Shown here: in pieces, positions 1-36,486 of the stretch
Layout of the letters: each line of letters starts with the position of its first letter
Position numbering within the stretch: the stretch's first letter is position 1
Assembly (NCBI GenBank): GCA_022823765.1
Contig: JAJEHK010000206.1
Coordinates: 3,984 to 67,983, forward strand
Reading direction: 5' to 3'
DNA: 64,000 bases
DNA from: Alphaproteobacteria bacterium
GTDB lineage: Bacteria; Pseudomonadota; Alphaproteobacteria; SP197
The notes under the pieces: model-generated
What the model was told of the DNA's origin: nothing
Seen by the model: the letters and a program-made list of their open reading frames with translations, nothing else
The model's database searches: none
Position numbers and translations under genes: made by a program

Positions 1-1078
1 CGACTTCAAGGTGCGAACCGACAGCGGGGTGTCGGGCCGAGGGATTGCTGCGAGTCTTCATCGTCAGGACATGGCGTGTCTGAGGATGCCTGAGCTCGGT
101 GATTGTCTCCGAGCCGACGAAGGACACCGAGACCACCTCGCACCCGATCCGGTTGCAGGCATCACCGGACGCCGGAACGAGAGCTTCGGGACGCACCGCA
201 AGCGCGAGCCCTTCCCGGACCTGCGGCAGAGGACCATCGACGCTCATCGTACCGAAGGGGGTCGAGACCATTGTCACGGCCTCACCGGTGCTTTCGATAC
301 GGCACGGCTCGAGGATGTTGCTCGCTCCGAAGAACGCGGCAACGAAACGGCTGCGCGGCCGATAGTAGAGGTCCCTGGGGGTGCCGATCTGCTCGATGCG
401 CCCGGACCGCATCACGCAGATGCGGTCAGACACCGTGATGGCTTCGGATTGATCGTGAGTGACGAAGACGAAGGTGATACCGCTCTGCCGTTGCACGACT
501 TTGAGGAACTTCTGCATCTGGCGTCGCAAGGTCGCATCGAGCGCGGCGAGCGGTTCGTCGAGCAGGATGAGACGCGGCTCGCAGATCATGGCGCGTGCGA
601 GCGCGGTCCTCTGCTGCTGTCCGCCACTCAGTTGCGTCGGATAGCGATTGCCGAGGTCTTCGAGTTCGACAATTCCGAGCGCATCCTCGACGCGCGCGTC
701 ACGCGTCGCACGGGCAATGCCCCGCACCCGCAGGCCGAACGCGACATTTTCCCGCACCGTCATGTGGGGGAAGAGCGCATAGTCCTGAAAGACGGTGTTG
801 AAGGGGCGGCGGTTGATCGGCAGGTCGGCGATGTCACGACCGTCAAACTCGATGCGTCCGGCCGTGGGCTGCTGAAATCCGGCAATCGTGCGCAGCAGCG
901 TGGTCTTCCCCGACCCCGAGGGGCCGAGTACGGTCAGGAACTCGCCATTGAGGACGTCAAGGTCGAGGGGACGGATGGCCTCGAAGTCCTGGAAGCGGAC
1001 GCCCAGCCCGCGAATTCGCAGAAGCGGCGTCCTGTCGCCTGCCACCTCGTGCCTGCTGTCGGCGTCAGGGGCGGCCAT
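1..1078 (-). CDS. ABC transporter ATP-binding protein, PotA/FbpC-like (spermidine/putrescine-type); C-terminus runs off the window start
   Basis: Minus-strand translation from ATG at 1078 gives GPSGSGKTTLL (Walker A), FQDYALFPHMTV, LSGGQQQRTALARAM (ABC signature) and ILLDEPL (Walker B). It is absent from the supplied ORF track because there is no stop codon inside the window. The start overlaps the upstream enolase stop by 14 nt. Confidence 0.85.
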   Translation of the reverse strand, partial: MAAPDADSRHEVAGDRTPLLRIRGLGVRFQDFEAIRPLDLDVLNGEFLTVLGPSGSGKTTLLRTIAGFQQPTAGRIEFDGRDIADLPINRRPFNTVFQDYALFPHMTVRENVAFGLRVRGIARATRDARVEDALGIVELEDLGNRYPTQLSGGQQQRTALARAMICEPRLILLDEPLAALDATLRRQMQKFLKVVQRQSGITFVFVTHDQSEAITVSDRICVMRSGRIEQIGTPRDLYYRPRSRFVAAFFGASNILEPCRIESTGEAVTMVSTPFGTMSVDGPLPQVREGLALAVRPEALVPASGDACNRIGCEVVSVSFVGSETITELRHPQTRHVLTMKTRSNPSARHPAVGSHLEV

Positions 1079-7521: not shown

Positions 7522-8561
7522 GGCAGCCGTTCTCCGGTCGTGCTGTCGAAAAAGTGCAGCCGGTCCGGCCGGAGCGCGAGCGACAGCGTCTCGCCGGCAC
7601 GAACCGTACCGCGTATGTCACCGCTGGTCCGGACGGTCAGGTGCGCACCACGGGCATTGCTGAGATGAAGAAGCGCCTCATGGCCGAGGTCCTCGATCCT
7701 GTTGACGCGCGCCGCGCCGATCGGGACCCCGCCTTCGGTCAACCCGATCAGGAGGTGTTCGGGTCGGATTCCAAGCGTCGATCCGCGACCGTGGGCGACC
7801 GTCGCTGCGGCGTCGCCAAGGAGGTCCTTCGCGTCAAGCAGGTTCATGCGCGGACTGCCTATGAAACCTGCCACGAAGGTATTCGCGGGCTGTTCGTAGA
7901 GTTCGGTGGGGACACCGATCTGCATGATCCGGCCCTGGTTCATCACCGCGATCCGGTCACCCATCGTCATGGCCTCGACCTGGTCATGGGTCACGTAGAC
8001 CGTGGTCGTCGTCAGCTGGCGCTGCATCTCGGAGATCTCTCCACGCATCTGAACCCTGAGTTCCGCATCGAGATTGGACAGCGGTTCGTCGAAGAGGAAG
8101 GCATCCGGCCTGCGAATCATGGCACGTCCCAGGGCAACGCGCTGCGCCTGGCCACCCGAAAGCTGACGGGGCTTGCGGCCGAGAAGGTCGCCGAGACCCA
8201 GCGTGTCGGCGACGCGCACGACCTCGGACTTGACGGTGGCGGGATCGGTCTTCCTGATTCTCAGTCCGAAGGAGAGATTGTCGCGCACCGTCATGTTGGG
8301 GAACAGCGCGTAGGACTGGAACACCATCGAGATGTTGCGCTGGGCGGGCGACAGGTGGTTGGCGCGTTCGCCGCCGATCATCAGGTCGCCCGATGAGATG
8401 GTCTCGAGGCCCGCGATCATCCGAAGCGTGGTCGACTTGGCGCAACCCGAGGGACCCACCAGCACCATGAACTCTCCCTCGCGGACGTAGAGGTCGAGGC
8501 CGGAGATGACCTCGACATCGCCGTAGCTCTTCGCAACGTCCAGAAACCGGATGTCTCTCAT
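7518..8561 (-). CDS. ABC transporter ATP-binding protein, MalK/UgpC (carbohydrate) type
   Basis: GPSGCAKST (Walker A), LSGGQAQRVALGRA (signature), FLFDEPLSNLD (Walker B) and a C-terminal TOBE-like regulatory domain. Confidence 0.9.
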   Translation of the reverse strand: MRDIRFLDVAKSYGDVEVISGLDLYVREGEFMVLVGPSGCAKSTTLRMIAGLETISSGDLMIGGERANHLSPAQRNISMVFQSYALFPNMTVRDNLSFGLRIRKTDPATVKSEVVRVADTLGLGDLLGRKPRQLSGGQAQRVALGRAMIRRPDAFLFDEPLSNLDAELRVQMRGEISEMQRQLTTTTVYVTHDQVEAMTMGDRIAVMNQGRIMQIGVPTELYEQPANTFVAGFIGSPRMNLLDAKDLLGDAAATVAHGRGSTLGIRPEHLLIGLTEGGVPIGAARVNRIEDLGHEALLHLSNARGAHLTVRTSGDIRGTVRAGETLSLALRPDRLHFFDSTTGERLP

Positions 8562-9073
8562 CGCAATGCGTTCCAGTCCGGGGAAATCGAAACGATCGCG
8601 TCAATCTCGACGGTGATGTTGCCGGGCAGGGATCCCATGCCGACGGCCGTGCGCGCATGCCTGCCCCGTTCACCGAAGACGTCGCAGAACAGGTTGGAAC
8701 AACCGTCGATGACCGCCGGGTGATCAACGAAGTCGGGTCCGGCATTGACCATGCCGAAGACACGGCGGATCTGCGCGACATGCTCAAGCGAGCCAAGAAT
8801 TTCCCTTATTGCGGCGATCAGCACGAGACCGGTTCTTTGTGCGTGGTGGAACGCTTCATGGACAGGAACGTCAAGCCCGACCTTGCCGGTTGCCAGCCGG
8901 CCGCATTCCAGGACCGGCCCCTGGCCCGACAGATAGAGCGTCGTGCCGTCGATGGAGCCCAGGTCGAAGTTCCCGACAGGCGCGGGTGTCGGGGGAATGA
9001 CATGGCCGAGTTCGGCAAGCCGCCGGTCTGCGACACACTCCGGGCCAGCCGTTCCGCGTCGTTGTGTGTTCAT
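8558..9073 (-). CDS. RidA/YjgF/TdcF family protein (reactive enamine/imine deaminase)
   Basis: YjgF-type chorismate-mutase-like fold of about 170 aa. It is overlap-coupled to both neighbouring genes. Confidence 0.75.
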   Translation of the reverse strand: MNTQRRGTAGPECVADRRLAELGHVIPPTPAPVGNFDLGSIDGTTLYLSGQGPVLECGRLATGKVGLDVPVHEAFHHAQRTGLVLIAAIREILGSLEHVAQIRRVFGMVNAGPDFVDHPAVIDGCSNLFCDVFGERGRHARTAVGMGSLPGNITVEIDAIVSISPDWNALR

Positions 9074-10113
9074 GCGGCAAAGGCTCCTTCAATCCTGTTT
9101 CGGGCAGTGGTCAGGAACTCTCCCGTTACGTCGAAGTCGTTGGCGATACCGTAGGCGAGACCTTCACGCTCGACGAAGGCCCTCAATCCGCGCATGGCCT
9201 CGAAGACATCGTGCCACGTCACGTTCATGGCGGCGGGGCGAATGTCGAGGCCGAGACGGGTCACCGCACCGAGCAGTTCATCAACACGCTGACCATGCAT
9301 CATCGCGCCGAGCACGAGACCCAGACACACCGCCTGGCCATGCAGGAACGCTTTCCCTGTTCCCGCTTCGAGGGCATAGAAGATGTAGTGCTCGACTCCC
9401 TCGATGTGGCGCGGATTCCAGCCCGCACCGTGGTAGGAGGCACCACCCCATCTCAGGCCGTCGACCAGAATCCGGATGCCGCGCGGCGAAAGCGTCCTGA
9501 TTTCGTCAAGTTCGGCCAGCGCCGTCCCGGCCTTCGCCAGCGAGATGGCGGCGAGGCTCTCATCAAAGGGCCAGCGCGATTCGCACTTGCCCCGGGCCTC
9601 GGCGTGACGCCAGTCCATGACGCCGGTAACGAAGCACAGGACATCGCCCATGCCGGCGATGTTGAGTGCGCGGGGCGCGGATTCAATGATATCGAGGTCG
9701 ATGTAGACGGTTTGCGGGACGGCCCATCCGACATACCTGACGACGCTGTTTTCCCGGACCCCCGCACGATGTCCGAAGACGGCATCGACGGAAAGCGATG
9801 TCGGAAACTGGAAGAGCGGCAGGTTGAGACGCCAGGCGGCATACTTGGCGGCATCGATCGCCTGACCACCTCCCAGACCGACGATCGAGGCAACATTTCC
9901 GATCGTCTCGAGATCGGCTTCCAGCGCGTCACGTTCCATGGAACGCACCATGTAGGGCACGGCATCGTCCGGCAGGGAGTCGCGAAAGACGGGCCAGAGG
10001 TCTTCCATCGTCACGACCAGCATGGGCGGGCATACGAAGTTCGCCGCTTCGTGAAGAAGGTTGCGTCCGAAGACTGTCGTGAACTGCGGGATATCGGATT
10101 CCTTGAACGGCAT
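9070..10113 (-). CDS. DHQS/iron-ADH superfamily protein, glycerol-1-phosphate dehydrogenase-like; paralog B
   Basis: GLGGGQAIDAAKY motif. It is a paralog of the protein at 5129..6259. Confidence 0.75.
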   Translation of the reverse strand: MPFKESDIPQFTTVFGRNLLHEAANFVCPPMLVVTMEDLWPVFRDSLPDDAVPYMVRSMERDALEADLETIGNVASIVGLGGGQAIDAAKYAAWRLNLPLFQFPTSLSVDAVFGHRAGVRENSVVRYVGWAVPQTVYIDLDIIESAPRALNIAGMGDVLCFVTGVMDWRHAEARGKCESRWPFDESLAAISLAKAGTALAELDEIRTLSPRGIRILVDGLRWGGASYHGAGWNPRHIEGVEHYIFYALEAGTGKAFLHGQAVCLGLVLGAMMHGQRVDELLGAVTRLGLDIRPAAMNVTWHDVFEAMRGLRAFVEREGLAYGIANDFDVTGEFLTTARNRIEGAFAA

Positions 10114-29004: not shown

Positions 29005-29418
29005 TTGAACATCCGCCCCTCTACTCTTGAAGACCGCGCCGGGGTCGTGGCGTTGTGGGAACGCGTGTTCCGCGACAATGCGCCGCACAATGCGCCGGGG
29101 AAGGTGTTCGACTCAAAGCTCCGGGTGGCGGACGACCTGCTCTTCGTAGCCGAAGACGCGGAGTGCATCATCGGCACCGTCATGGCGGGATATGACGGTC
29201 ATCGGGGCTGGTTGTACACGGTCGCGGTCTCTCCGGAGTACCGGAGACGCGGCATCGGCACAAACCTTGTTCGCCATGCCGTCGAGGCATTGCGCGCCGC
29301 GGGCTGTATCAAGGTCAACCTCCAGATACGGGCGACGAACGCCGCGGTGCGAGGGTTCTACGAGTCGCTCGGATTCGAGGCGGAAGCGCTCCTGAGCATG
29401 GGGCTGCACATCCGCTGA
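29005..29418 (+). CDS. GNAT family N-acetyltransferase
   Basis: Acetyl-CoA binding motif RRRGIGTNLV. An in-frame TTG start at 29005 is proposed, since the track ORF begins far upstream in non-coding-like sequence. The start is uncertain. Confidence 0.65.
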   Translation: MNIRPSTLEDRAGVVALWERVFRDNAPHNAPGKVFDSKLRVADDLLFVAEDAECIIGTVMAGYDGHRGWLYTVAVSPEYRRRGIGTNLVRHAVEALRAAGCIKVNLQIRATNAAVRGFYESLGFEAEALLSMGLHIR

Positions 29419-29494
29419 CCCGCAGGTCTCATGTCCTCCATGTGGTTTGGGCCGCGAATGCGCCACGGCCGTTCCCTGTCCTGGGCCCGTCCTT

Positions 29495-30484
29495 TCAGCT
29501 GTCCTGATGATGCGATGCAAGCGTGGCGCACATTCTTGCGAGTCGCCGGCGGAGGCGCACGGGCTTCTCGATGGTGACCGTCTCGCCCCAGGTTACGAGA
29601 TGCCAGCAGATCTCGTCGAGACCGCCGGCCTCGAAGCGCACCGTGACCGTGCCGTCCCGGTTCTTCTCCACGGTCTGATCTGGATGGAAGAGAAACGCCA
29701 TTGCGTCGGGCGCGGCGGCGGCGTTGAAGTGGAGGACGACCCGGACGGGCCTTTCCTGGAAGGTGCCGAAGGAGCGCCGGGCATAGCGCTGCAGATCGAA
29801 CGCCGGGTCGCGTTCGAACCGTTCTTCGAGCAGCCTGGCATCGCTGATGCCGGTGAGGCGCCAGAGCCGCGGTTCTTGCGCGCGGTCTTTCCGGGCAACG
29901 AGGAACGCGCGGTTGCCGTAGATCAGGCCGCAGGGCTCCACGCGTTGAAGACTGGTCTCGCCGGTCGAGCGCGCCCGGTAGCTGTATCCGACCATGCGGC
30001 GTGTCAGGAGCGCCTCGCGCAGGAGCGCAAGAAGATCGGCATCGACCGGCTGCCTCGGGGCTGGCCGCATGGCCAGCCCCTCGACCTGCATCAGGGCTTC
30101 GAGATCGGCCTCTCGTCCCCCCGGGGCTGCATTGCCCCGGGCGGCGCGCAGCTTGGTGTCGATGTCCCTCAACCTGGCCGCCTGTTCCCGCAAGCCGGTC
30201 CGTTCAAGGGCCATGGCGGCGGTGCCGAGCGCCGACAGTTCCTCGGCGTTTACCCGCAGCAGGCGACGCAGATCTCCCGATTGCAGCCGCCAGTGCAACC
30301 TCGTGTCGTCCACAGGCACGGTCTCCAGAGGTCCGAAGGCCGATTCGACGGCATCGCGCAATCGCTCGGCGGTCCGGCGGCTGACCGACAGGTCCTGCTC
30401 GATCTCCTGGAGTGTCACGCCGGCACGCGACCCCTGAAGCCGGATGGCCAGGCGCATGATGTCCTTCAGGCGCTCGTATCTCAT
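29495..30484 (-). CDS. WYL-domain transcriptional regulator (N-terminal HTH plus WYL plus C-terminal WCX-like domain)
   Basis: HTH GVTLQEIEQDLSVSRRTAERLRDAV and a central WYL-like segment (MVGYSYRARSTGETSLQRVEPCGLIY). Confidence 0.75.
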   Translation of the reverse strand: MRYERLKDIMRLAIRLQGSRAGVTLQEIEQDLSVSRRTAERLRDAVESAFGPLETVPVDDTRLHWRLQSGDLRRLLRVNAEELSALGTAAMALERTGLREQAARLRDIDTKLRAARGNAAPGGREADLEALMQVEGLAMRPAPRQPVDADLLALLREALLTRRMVGYSYRARSTGETSLQRVEPCGLIYGNRAFLVARKDRAQEPRLWRLTGISDARLLEERFERDPAFDLQRYARRSFGTFQERPVRVVLHFNAAAAPDAMAFLFHPDQTVEKNRDGTVTVRFEAGGLDEICWHLVTWGETVTIEKPVRLRRRLARMCATLASHHQDS

Positions 30485-30544
30485 CCTTTCAACCTTCCAC
30501 CATTGCTGCAGACCCGTGCCCCGGCACCATAGGGGGCGACGACG

Positions 30545-32659
30545 TCAAGCAGAACTGCTACGGCCGAAACCGATGGGATACGGACGGTCCGGCTTGGCTG
30601 CGCACTCGGCGCGCAGCATCTCCACAAGGGCTTCCGCATCGTGCAGGACACCCAGGATCTCGGCCCGGTTGCGCACCACGGCAAAGTCGCCGGGCGTGAG
30701 GGCCGCGAGATCCGAGAGAGAAGGCGGCGGCGCCAGATCGAAAGAGCTGCGGAAGGCCACGTCGGCCATTTCGGGGGTGAGATAGTCGAGCTTCACCTTG
30801 AAGACGAAGCGGCGCAACGTCGCCGGATCGAGACGGTCTGCGAAATTGGTCGTGCAGGCAAAAGGCAGGGGATGGCTTTCCATCCAGGTCAGCATCTCGT
30901 TGACCTGACTCACCTCCCAGTTGCGGTTGGCGAAACGCCGGTCCGCAAGAAGGGAATCCGCCTCGTCGAAGACCAGGAACGCGCCAGCATCGCGCGCCTC
31001 GGCGAAGGCACGGGCGATCATCTTCTCGGTCCCGCCTACCCACATGGACACGAGATCGGAGGCCCGCTTCTGCACGACCTCGAGGCCGAGCCTCTCAGCG
31101 AGGTAGCGGACATAGGCGCTCTTGCCGGTCCCCGGAGGACCCTGAAGGCAGAGGGAAAACCGCCTGCGCTTCTCCGCCGCGAGACGCTCCGCGAGAACCG
31201 ACGGGTCGGTGTCGGCCCGGATGAGAGCAGGATCGAACCCGGCCGGGGCCCGCTGGGGCGGCCTGTCGCAGGAAAGCAGTCGGGCCAGGCTGCGAACCCC
31301 CGTGCGAACCGCGGCGATGTCGCTTCCGGCGAGGCAGGCGGCCGCGGTGGCGCCGGCCGCAATTCCCGGAGTGGCGTCGAACTCCGAGGCCAGGGCGGTC
31401 ACCTCTTCCGGTGCGGCAGCGATATCGTGACGGTCGAGCTGTCGTGCCCAGACCCGGGCCCGTACGGCCGTTGTCGGCGGACGCAGTTCGAGGGCAAACA
31501 TCATGCGGCGCAGGATGGCGCGACTGACCCCGTCCGTGTCGTTTATGGTCCACAACGTCGGAGCCGGAGCCTGCTCGAGCAACCGGTGCATGAAGACCTT
31601 CGAGGCGGCTCCCCGGGAACGGGAGGACCGCATCGATCCGAACAGTCCGAAGTTCCCGAAGGAGTCTTCGAGCAGGTCGTCCATCTCGTCGAACATGAGG
31701 AGTGAACGGCCGTCGTTGGCGATCAGGCGTTGCGCCAGCTTGAGTTCCTGGAGTCTCTCCAGGCGTGAGGGCTCGTCGCCGTCGTCGTCTGCCTCGCCGA
31801 CACTGTAGAGCGCAGCGCCGAGCCGGGCCGCGAGCGCCTTGCAGAATTCCGTCTTGCCGGTGCCCGGCGGCCCGTAGAGCAGCACGTTCACCCCCGCCGT
31901 GCCGCCGGCAAGTGCGCCGCGCAGGAGTTTCTCGACATGGTCACGGTCACGGGCGACATGGCTGAAGTCCGTCCATTCGAGTTCAGCCGGCGGTGCGACG
32001 CTGAGCAGCAGACCGGTGACATCGATGCGCCCAGAGCCGGGCACGGTGACAAGGCGGCGGAGACGGGGCGGGATGACAAGATCGCCGTCATCGTCGATCG
32101 AGACGAGGCCTGAACGAACCAGGGGTGCGCCGCTCTGCAGGCGGGACTGGATCGTTCGAGCGGTCATGCCGAGCATCAGGGACACCGTCCATCCACGCTG
32201 ATTGAGCGCGCTCATGCGCAATCCGGGAGTCTCGAAGATATCGTCGATCATGGACTCGAACACAGCATGGGTCTCATAACGCAGAATCAGTTCGAGAATG
32301 CCGAGATCCGTTCCATTCAATCCTGCCGTGGCCCCGAGCTGCCGCAGGCGCAAGCTGGTGCGATCCCGTCTCGCCCGGCTGTTCACACGTTCCGTTCGCA
32401 GGTCTTCCGCGATACCGCGCAACGTCCTCGTGGTGACGTTCGCCTCGTCAAGAACCTGCCCGCGGCGGCGTCTTCGACCCCGTCTTCCTGCTCCCGATCC
32501 GATGCGTTGTTCCCGGTCGCCGATCCAGTCGACCAGTGCCCGGGCCTCGGGGTCCCGGTCTGTCAGGCCCGAGGCGATGTTGGCGAGATACGTGGTGAGC
32601 AGTCTTGTCTCGTAGGCGGTCAGCATGTCTCCCTCCCCATTGGCATTTTGGAGAGACAC
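30545..32659 (-). CDS. Tandem AAA+ ATPase (two classic AAA domains, each with GPPGTGKT Walker A) with a ~230-aa N-terminal domain of unknown function
   Basis: D1 has VLLYGPPGTGKTEF and LLMFDEMDD. D2 has LCLQGPPGTGKSAY, SMWVGGTEKMIARAF and FLVFDEADSL. An alternative start at 32626 is possible. Confidence 0.75.
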   Translation of the reverse strand: MSLQNANGEGDMLTAYETRLLTTYLANIASGLTDRDPEARALVDWIGDREQRIGSGAGRRGRRRRRGQVLDEANVTTRTLRGIAEDLRTERVNSRARRDRTSLRLRQLGATAGLNGTDLGILELILRYETHAVFESMIDDIFETPGLRMSALNQRGWTVSLMLGMTARTIQSRLQSGAPLVRSGLVSIDDDGDLVIPPRLRRLVTVPGSGRIDVTGLLLSVAPPAELEWTDFSHVARDRDHVEKLLRGALAGGTAGVNVLLYGPPGTGKTEFCKALAARLGAALYSVGEADDDGDEPSRLERLQELKLAQRLIANDGRSLLMFDEMDDLLEDSFGNFGLFGSMRSSRSRGAASKVFMHRLLEQAPAPTLWTINDTDGVSRAILRRMMFALELRPPTTAVRARVWARQLDRHDIAAAPEEVTALASEFDATPGIAAGATAAACLAGSDIAAVRTGVRSLARLLSCDRPPQRAPAGFDPALIRADTDPSVLAERLAAEKRRRFSLCLQGPPGTGKSAYVRYLAERLGLEVVQKRASDLVSMWVGGTEKMIARAFAEARDAGAFLVFDEADSLLADRRFANRNWEVSQVNEMLTWMESHPLPFACTTNFADRLDPATLRRFVFKVKLDYLTPEMADVAFRSSFDLAPPPSLSDLAALTPGDFAVVRNRAEILGVLHDAEALVEMLRAECAAKPDRPYPIGFGRSSSA

Positions 32660-32967
32660 TGGCAGGCAGATACGTCATATTCGGTCGCATACGATCAAAC
32701 AAATTGGCACGCGATCGGAGGCGGAGCGACCGGCCTCCATGGATTGCGCCGGCTCCGAGGGTCACAGGACCCAGGGACCGGATACCGCGACAACGCCGGC
32801 GCGCCGGCGGATCGGGGAACCCGCGTTCCATCAAGGTGCGCGACGGCTACTGCCGCCCGGAGTTCCGCGGCTTGTTCTCCATCGAGGGTGGCCTCCTGCT
32901 TCACGCAGTTGAACGAAGGAACAGGCGCCTCCAGCGGCCGCTGCTCCCTTCCTGGAGTATCCAGGTC

Positions 32968-34185
32968 TCAGGGTCGCGCGGCCCTTCTCCCCTCGGCCCA
33001 TCGCATGGCGGCGAAGGATGCGGCGCCAAACACCGCGAAAGCGGCAATCTGGACGTGCACGCTGCCATCGAAGCTCTGGCCCACGAGCGTTCCGAGCGGG
33101 ACCGATATGAGGGTGGCGAGCGAGGCGACCACCGCCGCGCCCACTCCGGCGATGTGACCCAGCGGGCCCATGGCGAGCGCGTTGAGGTTGCCGAACAGGA
33201 GGCCGACACCGAGGAAAACGACGATCAGGTAGGCCATGAACAGCCACAGCGGCGGAAGCCCTCCGGTGGCGAAAACCAGTGGCCACGCGGCGACCGAAAC
33301 CAGGGTGACGGACGCCGCCGCCACCTTTGAGAGCCGGCGCATTCCGTGCTTCATCACGAGGCGGCCGTTGGCCAGAGAGGCGCTGCCGAAGGCCAACGCC
33401 AGCACCCCGAAATAGAGCGGGAACAGCGCGCCGGTCCCGTAGGCCTCCTGGAAGATCTGCTGGGCCGAACTCAGGTAGGCGATGAGCGGTGCGAAGGCGC
33501 ACCCGGTGGCCAGCGTGTATCCCAGCGCGGTCCGGATCCTGAGCACCTCCACGACTGCGGCGCCAACGTCGCGCGGCGAGAGCCGGCGCCGGCTCTCGAC
33601 GGGCAGGGTTTCCGGCTGGCGCAGCGCGAGCCACACGAAGGCGACCGCGGCAATGGTGAGGAAGACGGCGAAGATGGCGCGCCAGCTTCCCAGCCACAGG
33701 ATCGCCTGGCCCAGCGCCGGGGCGACGGTGGGAACGAGGATGAACACGGCCATCGCGAACGACATCAGCCGCGCCATCCGGCGTCCTTCGTACTGATCGC
33801 GCACCAGGGCCATGACCACGATGCGCGGTCCGGCAGCGCCGAAGCCCTGCAGCACGCGGCCCGCGATCATCATCTCGAAGGTGGGCGCGAAAATGCTCAT
33901 CAGACAACCGCCCATGAACAGGACAAGGCCGGCATGGATGGCGGGCTTGCGTCCGATGCGATCGGACAGCGGACCGAACACGATCTGGCCCGCTCCAAGG
34001 CCGAGGAACAGGGCGGTGACGACAAACTGCACGTCGTTGCGCCGCGTTGTGCCCAGGTCTTCGCCAATCGTGGGCAGCGCCGGCAGCATGGCGCTGGTTG
34101 CGAGCTGGACGACCGACATCAGAAGCGCGACCAGCACGATGAATTCACCGTGGCGCAGGGCGGGTTTCGCAGCCTTCCGGTTCAT
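32968..34185 (-). CDS. MFS transporter, Bcr/CflA (drug-resistance) family
   Basis: Twelve predicted transmembrane helices and the MFS motif GPLSDRIGRKP. Confidence 0.85.
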   Translation of the reverse strand: MNRKAAKPALRHGEFIVLVALLMSVVQLATSAMLPALPTIGEDLGTTRRNDVQFVVTALFLGLGAGQIVFGPLSDRIGRKPAIHAGLVLFMGGCLMSIFAPTFEMMIAGRVLQGFGAAGPRIVVMALVRDQYEGRRMARLMSFAMAVFILVPTVAPALGQAILWLGSWRAIFAVFLTIAAVAFVWLALRQPETLPVESRRRLSPRDVGAAVVEVLRIRTALGYTLATGCAFAPLIAYLSSAQQIFQEAYGTGALFPLYFGVLALAFGSASLANGRLVMKHGMRRLSKVAAASVTLVSVAAWPLVFATGGLPPLWLFMAYLIVVFLGVGLLFGNLNALAMGPLGHIAGVGAAVVASLATLISVPLGTLVGQSFDGSVHVQIAAFAVFGAASFAAMRWAEGRRAARP

Positions 34186-34965
34186 CGCCTCCTCGCTGCG
34201 CTGCGCCCATCAATGTGTGAGACATGGCGGAAGCCGCTACTCTGCGGCCCGGATGCCGAAGATTCCTTCTGGCCCCCTTGCAGGGGCCCTACGGTCGGCA
34301 GTGCCTGAAGTGGAAATTGGTCCTGAATTGGCGCTTATGGCCCGTAGCCGCCCGGGATGCAATGGCTCCGGCGCGCGGACCGTGAGCTCGAACCGGATGC
34401 CGGCGACGGTCTCCGCTGCCTGCGTCGCAGAAACACGACCGGCACGTTCGGCGTCTTGCCACCGTGAACTGGAGGCGATCACCGGAAAGCGTCGATCAGG
34501 GAGCGTTCTTGTGATCGTTGCCGTTACCGTCTATTGAGCCGCTTCCGGCGGCGATGGCCCCATCAGCAAGGTCAACTCGACAGATGCCTTCCCCGAGAAT
34601 TGAGGAAAACACTCCGGCCAGGGATGAGGCCGGCAATTCGAATGCCCTGCGCAAGTTCGCCGGCAATGAGACCGGCGAGCGGACGTTCGTCGACGCATGG
34701 CTTGGCATGCAGCCGAAGGCAGCACACGGAATGGATCGCCGAGACCCTCTGCCCCCGACCGGGCCGGATCGCCTGACGGTCCCACGCGGTGGCCGTCCGA
34801 TCAAATGTGGACGCGGCCGGACGGTGGTCGAGTCCGTCAGTCGGTCGTTCCTTCCCCACGACCGCCGCGTGCGGAATGTCGCGTCTCGTACCCCTGTCTA
34901 ATCGTGCTGCAGGATGGCCTGGGTGCTCCGCACCACCATCCGATCCGTCAAGGTGCAAGGACCTG

Positions 34966-36099
34966 ATGAATACTACAACCGGTGCACGTCCCTTCCGCTT
35001 CTTCGACAATCGGGAGAAGTACCTGCTTTTCGTGACCACATGCAGCGAAAAGTGGGCGATCGGCGAGCGCATCGGCGCAGAGCTTTCCGAACTCTCTCCC
35101 GAACCTCCGGCGCTGCGGGTGTTCGACGCCGGGACCGGCGACGGCACCGTGATGGCCAGTGTGCTCCGGCGGCTTCATGGCCGCTTCCCCACTGTGCCGT
35201 TTCTGGTTGTCGGAAAGGAGATCAGCCTCGAGGACGTGAGGCTCACGCTGGACAAGCTTCCCGATCGTTTTTCCGAGCATCCGCAGACCGTCGTGGCGCT
35301 CACCAACATGCACTATCGAGAGGCGCCATGGTTGTCCCCGACCGGGAGCGAGGCACGACAGAACCTCAACTGGCGTGAGGTCGCGCTCGACGGCCACACC
35401 GCGCACGAGTTCGACCGGCAGATCGCCGATCTCCACCCGGTCCTGGCCGACTGGTGGGAGGTGCGCACGAGTCCCAGGACCGGAAATCCGGTTTACGCCG
35501 AACCGTCCGTGATCGTTCTCTATCGCTCCGACCACAGATTCATGCTCGATGCGGTCATTCCGAGGCCGGACGAACCGCCCGGAGGTTACGACCTTGTCAT
35601 CGCGGCGCAGCCCTATCGCGCGCGCCACACTGCCCAATTCAAGGTGCGGTTCGTGCTTGAACCCCTCGCTGCTTCGCTTGCGAAGGGAGGGCGCATGATC
35701 GTCATCCAGTCGACGGGACAGGACCCGGGGATGGAGATCATCCGCAAGATCTGGCCTTCGGAGGAACCGTTCCAAACCCCGGGACCGGTGCTCACGCAGG
35801 AGTTGCGCTCCCGGCTCGAAGCCAACTTTCCGGAACGCGAATTCGGCATCGACGGCAAGTCGAGCAGCTTTTTCCGCTATTCCCTGCACGTCATGCCCAA
35901 CGAGGTCGCCGAGAACATCGGAACCTCGACGCGACTGGCTGCATGGAATGCCGCGGTGTACGTCGCCCAGATCGACGACGAGCGCATTACGCACGCCATG
36001 TCCGAAGGCGCCTATCTGAACGCGACGGCCGAAGTCGTCGCACGTCATGGCGGGCTCTGGTTCGTCGACGAATCGTTCGTGGTCGTGCGACGCAAGTAA
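34966..36099 (+). CDS. Hypothetical protein with class I SAM-dependent methyltransferase-like motifs
   Basis: Motif I VFDAGTGDG, a post-I acidic residue (VVGKE), motif II DLVIAAQPY and motif III GGRMIVI. No confident family assignment. The start MNTTT is at 34966. Confidence 0.45.
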   Translation: MNTTTGARPFRFFDNREKYLLFVTTCSEKWAIGERIGAELSELSPEPPALRVFDAGTGDGTVMASVLRRLHGRFPTVPFLVVGKEISLEDVRLTLDKLPDRFSEHPQTVVALTNMHYREAPWLSPTGSEARQNLNWREVALDGHTAHEFDRQIADLHPVLADWWEVRTSPRTGNPVYAEPSVIVLYRSDHRFMLDAVIPRPDEPPGGYDLVIAAQPYRARHTAQFKVRFVLEPLAASLAKGGRMIVIQSTGQDPGMEIIRKIWPSEEPFQTPGPVLTQELRSRLEANFPEREFGIDGKSSSFFRYSLHVMPNEVAENIGTSTRLAAWNAAVYVAQIDDERITHAMSEGAYLNATAEVVARHGGLWFVDESFVVVRRK

Positions 36100-36486
36100 C
36101 GTCAAACCGCAATCTGGATCCGGCCCCATCGTTCCAGACTGCGCAGGCATTCCGTCCGAGATCGAACCCGTTGGTGGCAGTCCATCCCGCTCGTGATGAC
36201 CGATATCGAGGCCCGTCCCGCACCGCGATGCAGGTGAGGCCCTCAATCGGAGCGACGATCTCTTCCTGTTCCGCCCAATCCCTGCCGACGAGCGCCCCGG
36301 GGGCTTGACACTCCGCGCTCGCTCCCTGCGGACTTGCCTTGATTCGTCACCTGGCCGGAGCGCAATTCGAAACAAACCATTGCGCCCGGCGCGTGAGAAC
36401 AGAGGGTAACGCTCCAACGGAGAGTATCATCCGGCGCGGCGCCAGGCGCATCAGAGGGCGTTCGATGGACGAACGCGTCGTGTCCT

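Follow-up and report, generated by a model that had tools for sequence, protein, structure and literature searches.

A putative mobile cassette that couples a DriD-family WYL regulator to a Cdc48-like double-ring AAA+ ATPase

We analyzed a 64,000-nucleotide stretch of DNA (hereafter the window) from contig JAJEHK010000206.1 of an Alphaproteobacteria bacterium (assembly GCA_022823765.1), in which two adjacent genes on the minus strand encode a double-ring classic AAA+ ATPase and a WYL-domain transcriptional regulator. Together with the promoter that precedes them, these genes probably constitute a self-contained mobile cassette made of a DriD-type promoter, an AAA+ unfoldase and a DriD-family WYL regulator, and the role that we favor for it is that of a segregase induced by single-stranded DNA (ssDNA). 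The regulatory half of this proposal (a DriD-family dimer, its box and transcriptional activation) appears well supported, whereas the effector half is what we infer from the domains of the ATPase and the company it keeps. We found no literature that links a WYL or DriD regulator with a Cdc48-like ATPase or that describes this ATPase family, and the novelty of the locus lies in a DriD regulon that takes the form of a mobile cassette and includes an effector not seen before in this role.

The regulator was examined with Pfam, which detected WYL and WCX domains and, weakly, HTH_11, as expected from the initial annotation of the window, which had read a WYL helix-turn-helix gene downstream of the ATPase gene on the same strand. 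Its best sequence matches in the PDB were entries of DriD from Caulobacter crescentus (9pfq/8tp8, E 6.5e-52), to which it aligns over the full length (query 1-315 versus DriD 5-317, with approximately 37% identity), and the two proteins have the same length and domain order. Five distinct PDB sequences were matched at E ≤ 0.01, all of them titled WYL domain-containing protein or DeoR-family regulator. Two of these are known DriD entries and the remaining three we take to be DriD constructs, and none of the named matches at this threshold corresponded to BrxR, CapW, or PafBC. DriD and the regulator have the same recognition helix (RRTAERxRDAV), with the base contacts R37, E40, and R41 retained, while five of the seven phosphate contacts and five of the nine positions that contact ssDNA in DriD (Y168, S172, L193, R204, and W206) are also kept. 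By its architecture, similarity, base contacts, and cognate box, the regulator is best placed within the DriD family. DriD is a transcription activator that binds ssDNA derived from DNA damage and then a pseudo-palindromic box (PMC9186387, PMC10853764), and the protein described here would presumably sense ssDNA as well and activate rather than repress its target. In Caulobacter, driD is divergent from a small open reading frame (ORF) and a TonB transporter operon, and controls didA, bapE, recJ, and dnaG. Unlike this arrangement, the regulator gene described here lies downstream of its main target, the AAA+ ATPase gene, probably in a single operon, and the whole unit is mobile.

A 20-mer, ATACG(A/T)CCGnATnTGACG(T/C)A, is conserved upstream of the ATPase start among the aligned related loci. 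Its representative in the window, ATGCGACCGAATATGACGTA, is the sole match within the 64 kb and agrees with both the DriD site of the didA promoter, ATACGTCCGTTTCTGGCGCA (PMC9186387), and the core of the DriD box, CGxC(N7)GxCG (PMC10853764). DdaA of Acinetobacter has the same box core. A hexamer located 9 nt after the box conforms to TAnnnT in 46 loci (T in 41, A in all 46, and the final T in 43), and the start codon follows some 26-37 nt after it. The spacing between box and -10 is also 9 nt in the didA and CCNA_03891 promoters, of which the former reads box, TGGCTCGGC, CAAGGT, and cryo-electron microscopy of DriD-activated promoters placed the box at the position of the -35 element and at a fixed distance from the -10 (PMC13004042). 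A search for the combination of box, 9-nt gap, and -10 found a single instance in the window and none in 100 shuffles. Moreover, a consensus scan of positions 29300..33100 retrieved no canonical sigma-70 promoter, which fits a promoter dependent on an activator. Taken as a whole, control of the ATPase gene is very likely of the DriD type.

The opposite arrangement, in which the WYL protein acts as BrxR and CapW do and silences a potentially toxic ATPase until ssDNA releases it, seems improbable to us. The box does overlap the core promoter (-41..-22), so that a protein sitting on it could block RNA polymerase, and ssDNA-responsive WYL repressors have been described (PMC11662680). However, the distance from the box to the -10 is identical to that of DriD-activated promoters, the promoter has neither a -35 element nor a consensus that would allow it to fire unaided, and the closest solved relatives of the regulator are DriD only. 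BrxR and CapW resemble the present system in their wHTH-WYL-WCX (winged helix-turn-helix, WYL, WCX) architecture, in a palindromic operator near the regulated promoter, and in their association with mobile islands, but they are repressors encoded upstream of their systems, whereas the WYL gene here lies downstream of the ATPase gene and both operator sequence and promoter geometry are those of DriD. The initial annotation had named BrxR, CapW, and PafBC as examples of WYL regulators; WYL control stands, but the family is specifically that of DriD and the geometry is one of activation, not of repression of the BrxR/CapW type.

Between promoter and ATPase gene, the segment CTCTCC, directly after the -10, is complementary to the Shine-Dalgarno region (GGAGAG/GGAGGG), and equivalent leaders are present in the related loci L001-L077. 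Both segments co-vary, with duplex energies of -9.0 kcal/mol within a locus and -7.7 kcal/mol between loci (permutation p 2e-4, uncorrected for phylogeny), and the mean folding z of the leaders was only -1.0. The leader may thus form a 5′ hairpin that sequesters the Shine-Dalgarno sequence, or it may be a conserved discriminator if transcription begins downstream of CTCTCC; the hairpin is uncertain because the transcript may begin at CTCTCC or only after it. The spacer between the two genes, 60 bp long rather than the 61 bp first reported, contains no terminator, nor did it contain a sigma-70 consensus promoter, and in the absence of a terminator the regulator is probably co-transcribed with the ATPase, from which positive feedback would follow. 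The motif CTATGGTG recurs in the ATPase-WYL spacers of many loci and could represent an internal basal promoter for the regulator. A hairpin in the spacer was discarded as a candidate, since it was no more stable than shuffled sequences (z +0.87).

Relatives of the ATPase were retrieved by a scan of one genome per species, which yielded more than 583, and the best 80 (53-89% identity) were compared as loci. These loci span at least eight phyla, with hosts belonging to Alphaproteobacteria, Gammaproteobacteria, Nitrospirales, Binatia, Acidobacteriota, Latescibacterota, Gemmatimonadota, and Thermodesulfobacteriota, and some of the genomes carry two or three copies of the ATPase. About 55 of the 80 loci have a WYL homologue (54-89% identity) directly downstream in the same orientation, and the box is present at the same position upstream of the ATPase in about 61; box, ATPase, and WYL gene are found as a set in about 55. 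By contrast with this constancy, the flanks are unrelated between loci: the immediate neighbours were heterogeneous in a Pfam census, and all-against-all clustering of the ORFs of the 80 loci revealed no conserved third gene (maximum 9 loci). DNA similarity between the window and loci L002 and L003 extends from the box to the stop codon of the AAA gene or just past it, with a separate alignment block in L003 that takes in the initial third of the WYL gene before the contig ends, and the window is syntenic with its closest relative, L001, over 14 kb. Pairwise identities of ATPase and WYL proteins co-vary (Pearson 0.88 across 37 loci and 666 pairs). Because only these elements are conserved, because DNA similarity is bounded in this way, and because the two proteins co-vary, we take the unit of transfer or inheritance to comprise the box, the promoter, and the ATPase and regulator genes.

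The frequent adjacency of a WYL homologue and the co-variation of the identities also show that the pairing does not result from chance. The initial annotation had called for a check on whether the AAA-WYL neighbourhood is conserved in relatives, and had regarded a known housekeeping ATPase with an unconserved WYL neighbour as the outcome that would speak against its proposal. The neighbourhood is conserved and that outcome is contradicted, as the WYL gene is kept and the curated families score below their cut-offs. It is accordingly very hard to believe that a housekeeping AAA+ chaperone lies incidentally beside an unrelated regulator: the flanks of the window are housekeeping genes, which would suit that explanation, but pair and box are maintained across phyla despite unrelated flanks, the two proteins co-evolve, the ATPase family is small and patchy, and the curated housekeeping families are all far from their thresholds. 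The window belongs to a metagenome scaffold (KELL22-1_SAMN22237341), and nearly all of the metagenome-assembled genomes (MAGs) of the closest relatives presumably derive from marine-sponge microbiomes, judging from their names (SB06xx_bin, RHO1/RHO3_bin, jk18x, p16x, CO36386bin, bin75, and UUID isolates). Relatives from eight phyla at 53-89% identity, with up to three copies per genome, suggest exchange within one habitat. Phage records provided one partial, generic match and no member of the family, and no member was found in IMG/VR.

The ATPase ORF had been listed from a GTG at 32659, which gives a protein of 704 aa. An alternative ATG at 32626 has GGAGG 5 nt upstream, and all homologues begin with MLTAYE; on account of this ribosome-binding sequence and the common N-terminus, translation likely starts at the ATG and the protein measures 693 aa. 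Pfam identified two PF00004 modules (115.8 bits versus a cut-off of 21.2), the best stretch within D2 corresponding to aa 503-625 in the 704-aa numbering, and the initial reading of an N-terminal domain of about 230 aa followed by two complete classic AAA modules, with GPPGTGKT/S P-loops and DEMD and DEAD Walker B motifs, was otherwise correct. The alignment of 41 homologues (62-100% identity) showed K258, K502, D313/E314, D554/E555, N362, N594, R373/R374, and R605/R606 to be invariant, and the segments that hold sensor-1 and the arginines read WTINDTDGVSRAILRRM and TTNFADRLDPATLRRF. The pore loop of D2 has the canonical aromatic residue (W529-V530-G531), while that of D1 is atypical ([YF]-x-V-G) and a disordered insertion follows the D1 Walker B motif. 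An AlphaFold2 model of the protein had a pLDDT (predicted local distance difference test) of 79.5.

Searches of the PDB with this model in Foldseek returned Cdc48, p97, NVL, and Rix7 as best matches, with both rings superposed over about 540 columns (E ~1e-17) at an identity of only about 17%, in line with the earlier description of the protein as a Cdc48/p97-like tandem classic AAA. At the sequence level, D2 matched the D2 rings of VAT, Cdc48, and p97 (E 2e-21). On the other hand, the protein scored 64.2 bits against the CDC48 model TIGR01243 (cut-off 802.65) and 91.1 bits against the IteA model NF042959 (cut-off 510), the latter over D2 only. PAN, FtsH, EccA, and CdvC gave lower scores than these two, and the curated NCBIfam families Cdc48, PAN, FtsH, EccA, CdvC, and RFC were all rejected as far below their cut-offs. 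No CbbX/SpoVK-type or secretion ATPase was present among the best 25 matches listed for Pfam or NCBIfam, with the exception of a weak EccA match. Since the fold is Cdc48-like and the curated scores remain below their cut-offs, sequence comparison and modelling place the ATPase in a new family of type II classic AAA+ proteins with a predicted N-domain of the nucleic-acid-binding type, and not among Cdc48 orthologues. It shares with Cdc48, p97, and VAT the two stacked classic AAA modules with Walker A and B motifs, sensor-1, and arginines, together with the aromatic D2 pore loop. It differs from them in the D1 pore loop and the insertion described above, and in its N-domain, which is helical with a winged helix, whereas that of Cdc48/p97 consists of a double-psi barrel and a beta-clam.

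These observations can be assembled into a mechanism. ssDNA would build up upon genotoxic damage, stalled replication, or the replication of phages or plasmids, and its binding by the WYL-WCX core of the regulator dimer would free the winged helix-turn-helix domains. The dimer would then settle on the box (about -41..-22) and recruit RNA polymerase to this promoter without a -35 element, leading to transcription of the ATPase gene and probably, by read-through, of the regulator gene, with positive feedback as a consequence. The ATPase would form a Cdc48-like stacked hexamer, its N-domain with winged helix and Arg-rich linker would dock on DNA or on a DNA-bound partner, and the W-V-G pore loops of D2 would thread and unfold a target protein. 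The parts of a double-ring unfoldase, combined with such an N-domain, suggest that the ATPase is recruited to DNA complexes from which it unfolds or extracts a protein, although we infer the hexamer, the docking, and above all the substrate from sequence and model. As to its role, we tentatively propose repair or segregase activity, that is, the clearing or resetting of proteins on damaged DNA.

More distant members of the ATPase family (35-50% identity) were found on plasmids and chromids of cultured Alphaproteobacteria, and the association of box, ATPase, and WYL gene occurs on plasmids of Fuscovulum, Paracoccus, Azospirillum, and Novosphingobium. Culturable carriers include Azospirillum brasilense 2020WEIHUA_K (NZ_CP059450.1, about 192 kb), Paracoccus versutus DSM 17099 (pBEN, about 309 kb), and Fuscovulum blasticum (pRsa). 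In Paracoccus the ATPase gene is followed by the WYL gene, while the two genes point away from each other in Novosphingobium, Sphingobium, and Azospirillum. A DriD-type box lies between the divergent genes in Azospirillum and Novosphingobium, and none was found in the short ATPase-WYL spacer of Sphingobium. The ATPase of Croceicoccus keeps a box, and its neighbours are a WGR protein and a nuclease. Plasmid pRsa of Fuscovulum blasticum and a conjugative plasmid of Leisingera thetidis share a longer gene order, consisting of ATPase, WYL regulator, a fusion of DSP-phosphatase and ADP-ribosylglycohydrolase, (HEPN), an AddB-like PD-(D/E)XK nuclease, an AddA-like UvrD helicase, two unknown proteins, and an SNF2-like helicase. 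In these Fuscovulum and Leisingera loci, DriD-type promoters with the 9-nt geometry precede both the ATPase gene and the operon of the ADP-ribosylglycohydrolase and AddAB-like genes. The copy on Leisingera thetidis plasmid pBMJM1_5 (L089, 555..2558) is annotated as two ORFs, an N-terminal one of 210 aa and an AAA one of 452 aa; its box is degenerate in the left half, elements of the insertion sequence (IS) types IS66 and IS3 adjoin it, and it is possibly a decaying copy.

An ADP-ribosylglycohydrolase also follows the ATPase in those sponge-type loci that have no DriD-like gene, as a standalone protein in Latescibacterota and Gemmatimonadota and as an IMPase-like fusion in Binatia and Thermodesulfobacteriota. 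Additional DriD-type promoters were detected next to the cassette, ahead of other genes, in four of the loci (Table 1), and appear to provide a glimpse of a wider, mobile DriD regulon. DNA ends, ssDNA, and the reversal of ADP-ribosylation are the recurring theme among the neighbours. Another arrangement was seen in a Latescibacterota locus (L058, 766..10455), where a unit of a DnaB-like helicase gene, a small ORF, and the ATPase gene is present twice in tandem.

Table 1. Features of the ATPase-WYL cassette and of related loci. Positions are those of the window, or of the locus named; residue numbers refer to the 693-aa version of the ATPase unless stated otherwise.
Feature	Residues	Position	Strand	Remarks
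DriD-family regulator gene, 329 aa		29495..30484	-	wHTH, three-helix bundle, WYL, WCX
Spacer between ATPase and WYL genes		30485..30544	-	60 bp
-10-like motif CTATGGTG		30525..30532	-	In the spacer; flanking short GC inverted repeat
Double-ring classic AAA+ ATPase gene, 693 aa		30545..32626	-	Stop codon included
D2 AAA module		30548..31216	-	Pfam, homologue alignment, PDB sequence matches
D2 Walker A GPPGTGKS	496-503	31118..31141	-	
D2 Walker B FDEADS, sensor-1, arginines	D554/E555, N594, R605/R606			
D1 AAA module		31217..31921	-	Pfam PF00004 and invariant columns in 41 homologues
D1 Walker A GPPGTGKT	252-259	31850..31873	-	
D1 Walker B FDEMDD, sensor-1, arginines	D313/E314, N362, R373/R374			
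N-terminal domain	1-235	31922..32626	-	Long helices, linker, winged helix
Winged-helix module in N-domain	~105-195	~32042..32314	-	
Arg-rich disordered linker in N-domain	~46-60			
Leader		32627..32655	-	Begins CTCTCC; Shine-Dalgarno GGAGG at ~32632..32636
-10 hexamer CAGTGT		32656..32661	-	Exactly 9 nt after the box; -35 element absent
DriD-type box ATGCGACCGAATATGACGTA		32671..32690	-	20 bp, core CGAC-N7-GACG; putative, by sequence
ADP-ribosylglycohydrolase after ATPase or ATPase-WYL pair		L041, L072, L074, L076 ~8110..9080; L056 8083..9945; L078 8796..10679		
ADP-ribosylglycohydrolase after ATPase or pair (continued)		L088 4115..5548; L089 3628..5196		Own DriD-type promoter in plasmids
Extra DriD-type promoter, NADAR protein		L006 5237..5846		Box, 9 nt, TAnnnT
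Extra DriD-type promoter, DUF1643/PD-(D/E)XK (PDDEXK_4)/DnaB operon		L029 2992..5296		Box, 9 nt, TAnnnT
Extra DriD-type promoter, Nmad2 protein		L047 4879..5630		Box, 9 nt, TAnnnT
Extra DriD-type promoter, Fic protein		L050 10104..10778		Box, 9 nt, TAnnnT

These neighbours invite a more specific proposal, which we regard as speculative and rather doubtful at present: in the bacterial response to DNA damage, the ATPase could play the part of p97, locating trapped, cross-linked, or ADP-ribosylated proteins by means of its winged-helix N-domain and extracting them from DNA beside co-regulated ADP-ribose hydrolases and AddAB-like nucleases, and it could have spread horizontally among symbionts and plasmids as a plug-in DriD regulon.

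The same neighbourhoods bear on a possible function in defence against phages or plasmids, in which the ssDNA of an invader would trigger the WYL protein and the AAA+ unfoldase would disable a phage or host protein, possibly through abortive infection. We consider this function a serious possibility, although an unlikely one. The cassette is mobile, patchy, and multi-copy, it resides on conjugative or IS-flanked plasmids, and its neighbours include PDC-S26-like PD-(D/E)XK, HEPN, Mrr, HNH, HSDR_N, AbiEi, and DUF4143 proteins, SNF2/ZacC-like helicases, and toxin-antitoxin pairs. CapW and similar WYL regulators sense ssDNA in order to control immune operons (PMC11662680), and the nearest PADLOC and NCBIfam names for D2 are IetA and IteA. 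However, PADLOC system models were unmatched, and known defence systems were represented by generic partial matches only (IetA, TRIP13, and MkoA). Among the named defence families, IetA/IteA, the ATPase of the anti-phage system IetAS, scores highest for the D2 core, but its 91 bits remain below the cut-off of 510 and cover D2 alone. IetA has a single AAA module, measures about 370 aa, and works with the IetS protease, whereas the ATPase described here has two modules and a different N-domain; no IetS subtilisin-like protease lies beside it, either among the window neighbours (MFS/GNAT) or as a conserved third gene across the 80 loci. The regulator is DriD-like with activator geometry and not BrxR/CapW-like, the flanks of the window are housekeeping genes (HtpG, aldolase, GNAT, and MFS), and the co-regulated ADP-ribosylglycohydrolase, NADAR, AddAB-like, and DnaB genes suit DNA repair equally well. 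The initial annotation, which had envisaged a WYL-controlled stress or defence module and had advised a PADLOC-style search, was right in its general direction, but neither that search, with its partial and generic IetA-like match to D2, nor the phage records lent support to phage defence.

Comparison with actinobacteria raises another explanation, by which the ATPase resets the circuit, unfolding or stripping DriD-like or damage-response proteins. PafBC and the Pup-proteasome/Mpa system likewise offer a WYL-type DNA-damage regulator that is genetically linked to an AAA+ unfoldase system. However, PafBC is a heterodimer that recognizes a different motif, Mpa is a single-ring AAA protein with coiled-coil and OB domains that feeds the proteasome, and no protease is conserved beside the ATPase-WYL cassette, unlike in the actinobacterial system. 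Regulator and ATPase are indeed tightly linked and co-evolving, the only target of the box that stays constant throughout the family is the ATPase, and mycobacterial repair proteins have been discussed as being removed by the proteasome after repair (PMC9186387). Nevertheless, ATPase variants exist that are paired with an ADP-ribosylglycohydrolase instead of a DriD-like gene or box, and the lack of a conserved protease partner also counts against such a reset, which we hold to be quite improbable.

Several points weigh against an ssDNA-induced segregase under DriD-type control, which is nonetheless the reading that we prefer. The box at its usual site and a DriD-like gene are both missing in 16 of the 80 loci, and the -10 of the window begins with C instead of T, which may weaken the promoter. 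Four of the nine ssDNA contacts of DriD are changed in the regulator (Y192F, K202E, R178Q, and N191A), and for this reason its ligand could differ. In Caulobacter, driD does not lie beside an AAA gene, which means that DriD was not coupled to the ATPase ancestrally. DNA binding does not follow from the presence of a winged helix, and what we say of the ATPase family draws throughout on sequence comparison and models. Finally, many flanks carry defence-type genes (AbiEi, HSDR_N, HNH, PDC-S26-like, HEPN, and SNF2-like), which fit a role in defence as well as one in repair.

The surroundings of the pair in the window consist of housekeeping-type genes for HtpG, a class II aldolase, a GNAT protein, an MFS transporter, and a homocysteine S-methyltransferase. 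Between the last two, at 34789..36417, overlapping ORFs of 489 aa (minus strand) and 436 aa (plus strand) compete for the same DNA, and neither of them had a Pfam match. Just upstream of the box, at ~32720..32745 on the minus strand, a stem-loop, GGAGGCCGGTCGCTCCGCCTCC, is kept in L001 and L042; it may mark the end of the upstream MFS transcript, and no clear T-tract follows it. Further upstream, at 32794..32809, the initial annotation had singled out a 16-bp GC palindrome. This perfect palindrome, CGCCGGCGCGCCGGCG, is present, but L001 and L042, with an overall identity of 88-89% and a perfect box, carry mutations in it. As it is not conserved in these closest relatives, it was rejected as an operator and is probably a chance occurrence in 65%-GC DNA, the control element being the DriD-type box.

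DriD-type WYL activators define a recently described DNA-damage pathway that is independent of SOS, and the targets known so far comprise a division inhibitor, nucleases, and enzymes of replication or repair. Outside Caulobacter, the AAA+ family described here is the target with which DriD boxes are most constantly associated, from MAGs of eight phyla to plasmids of culturable Alphaproteobacteria, and the locus offers a precise regulatory model with a putative operator, promoter geometry, and inducer. It also nominates a Cdc48-like unfoldase as an effector of bacterial genome-stress or conflict responses, one that is genetically linked to enzymes that reverse ADP-ribosylation. If the cassette did serve in defence, it would represent an equally novel anti-phage system of two genes, WYL and AAA, whose effector logic would be new. 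Whichever its function, the distribution of the cassette shows that regulator, operator, and target can cross phyla as one unit.

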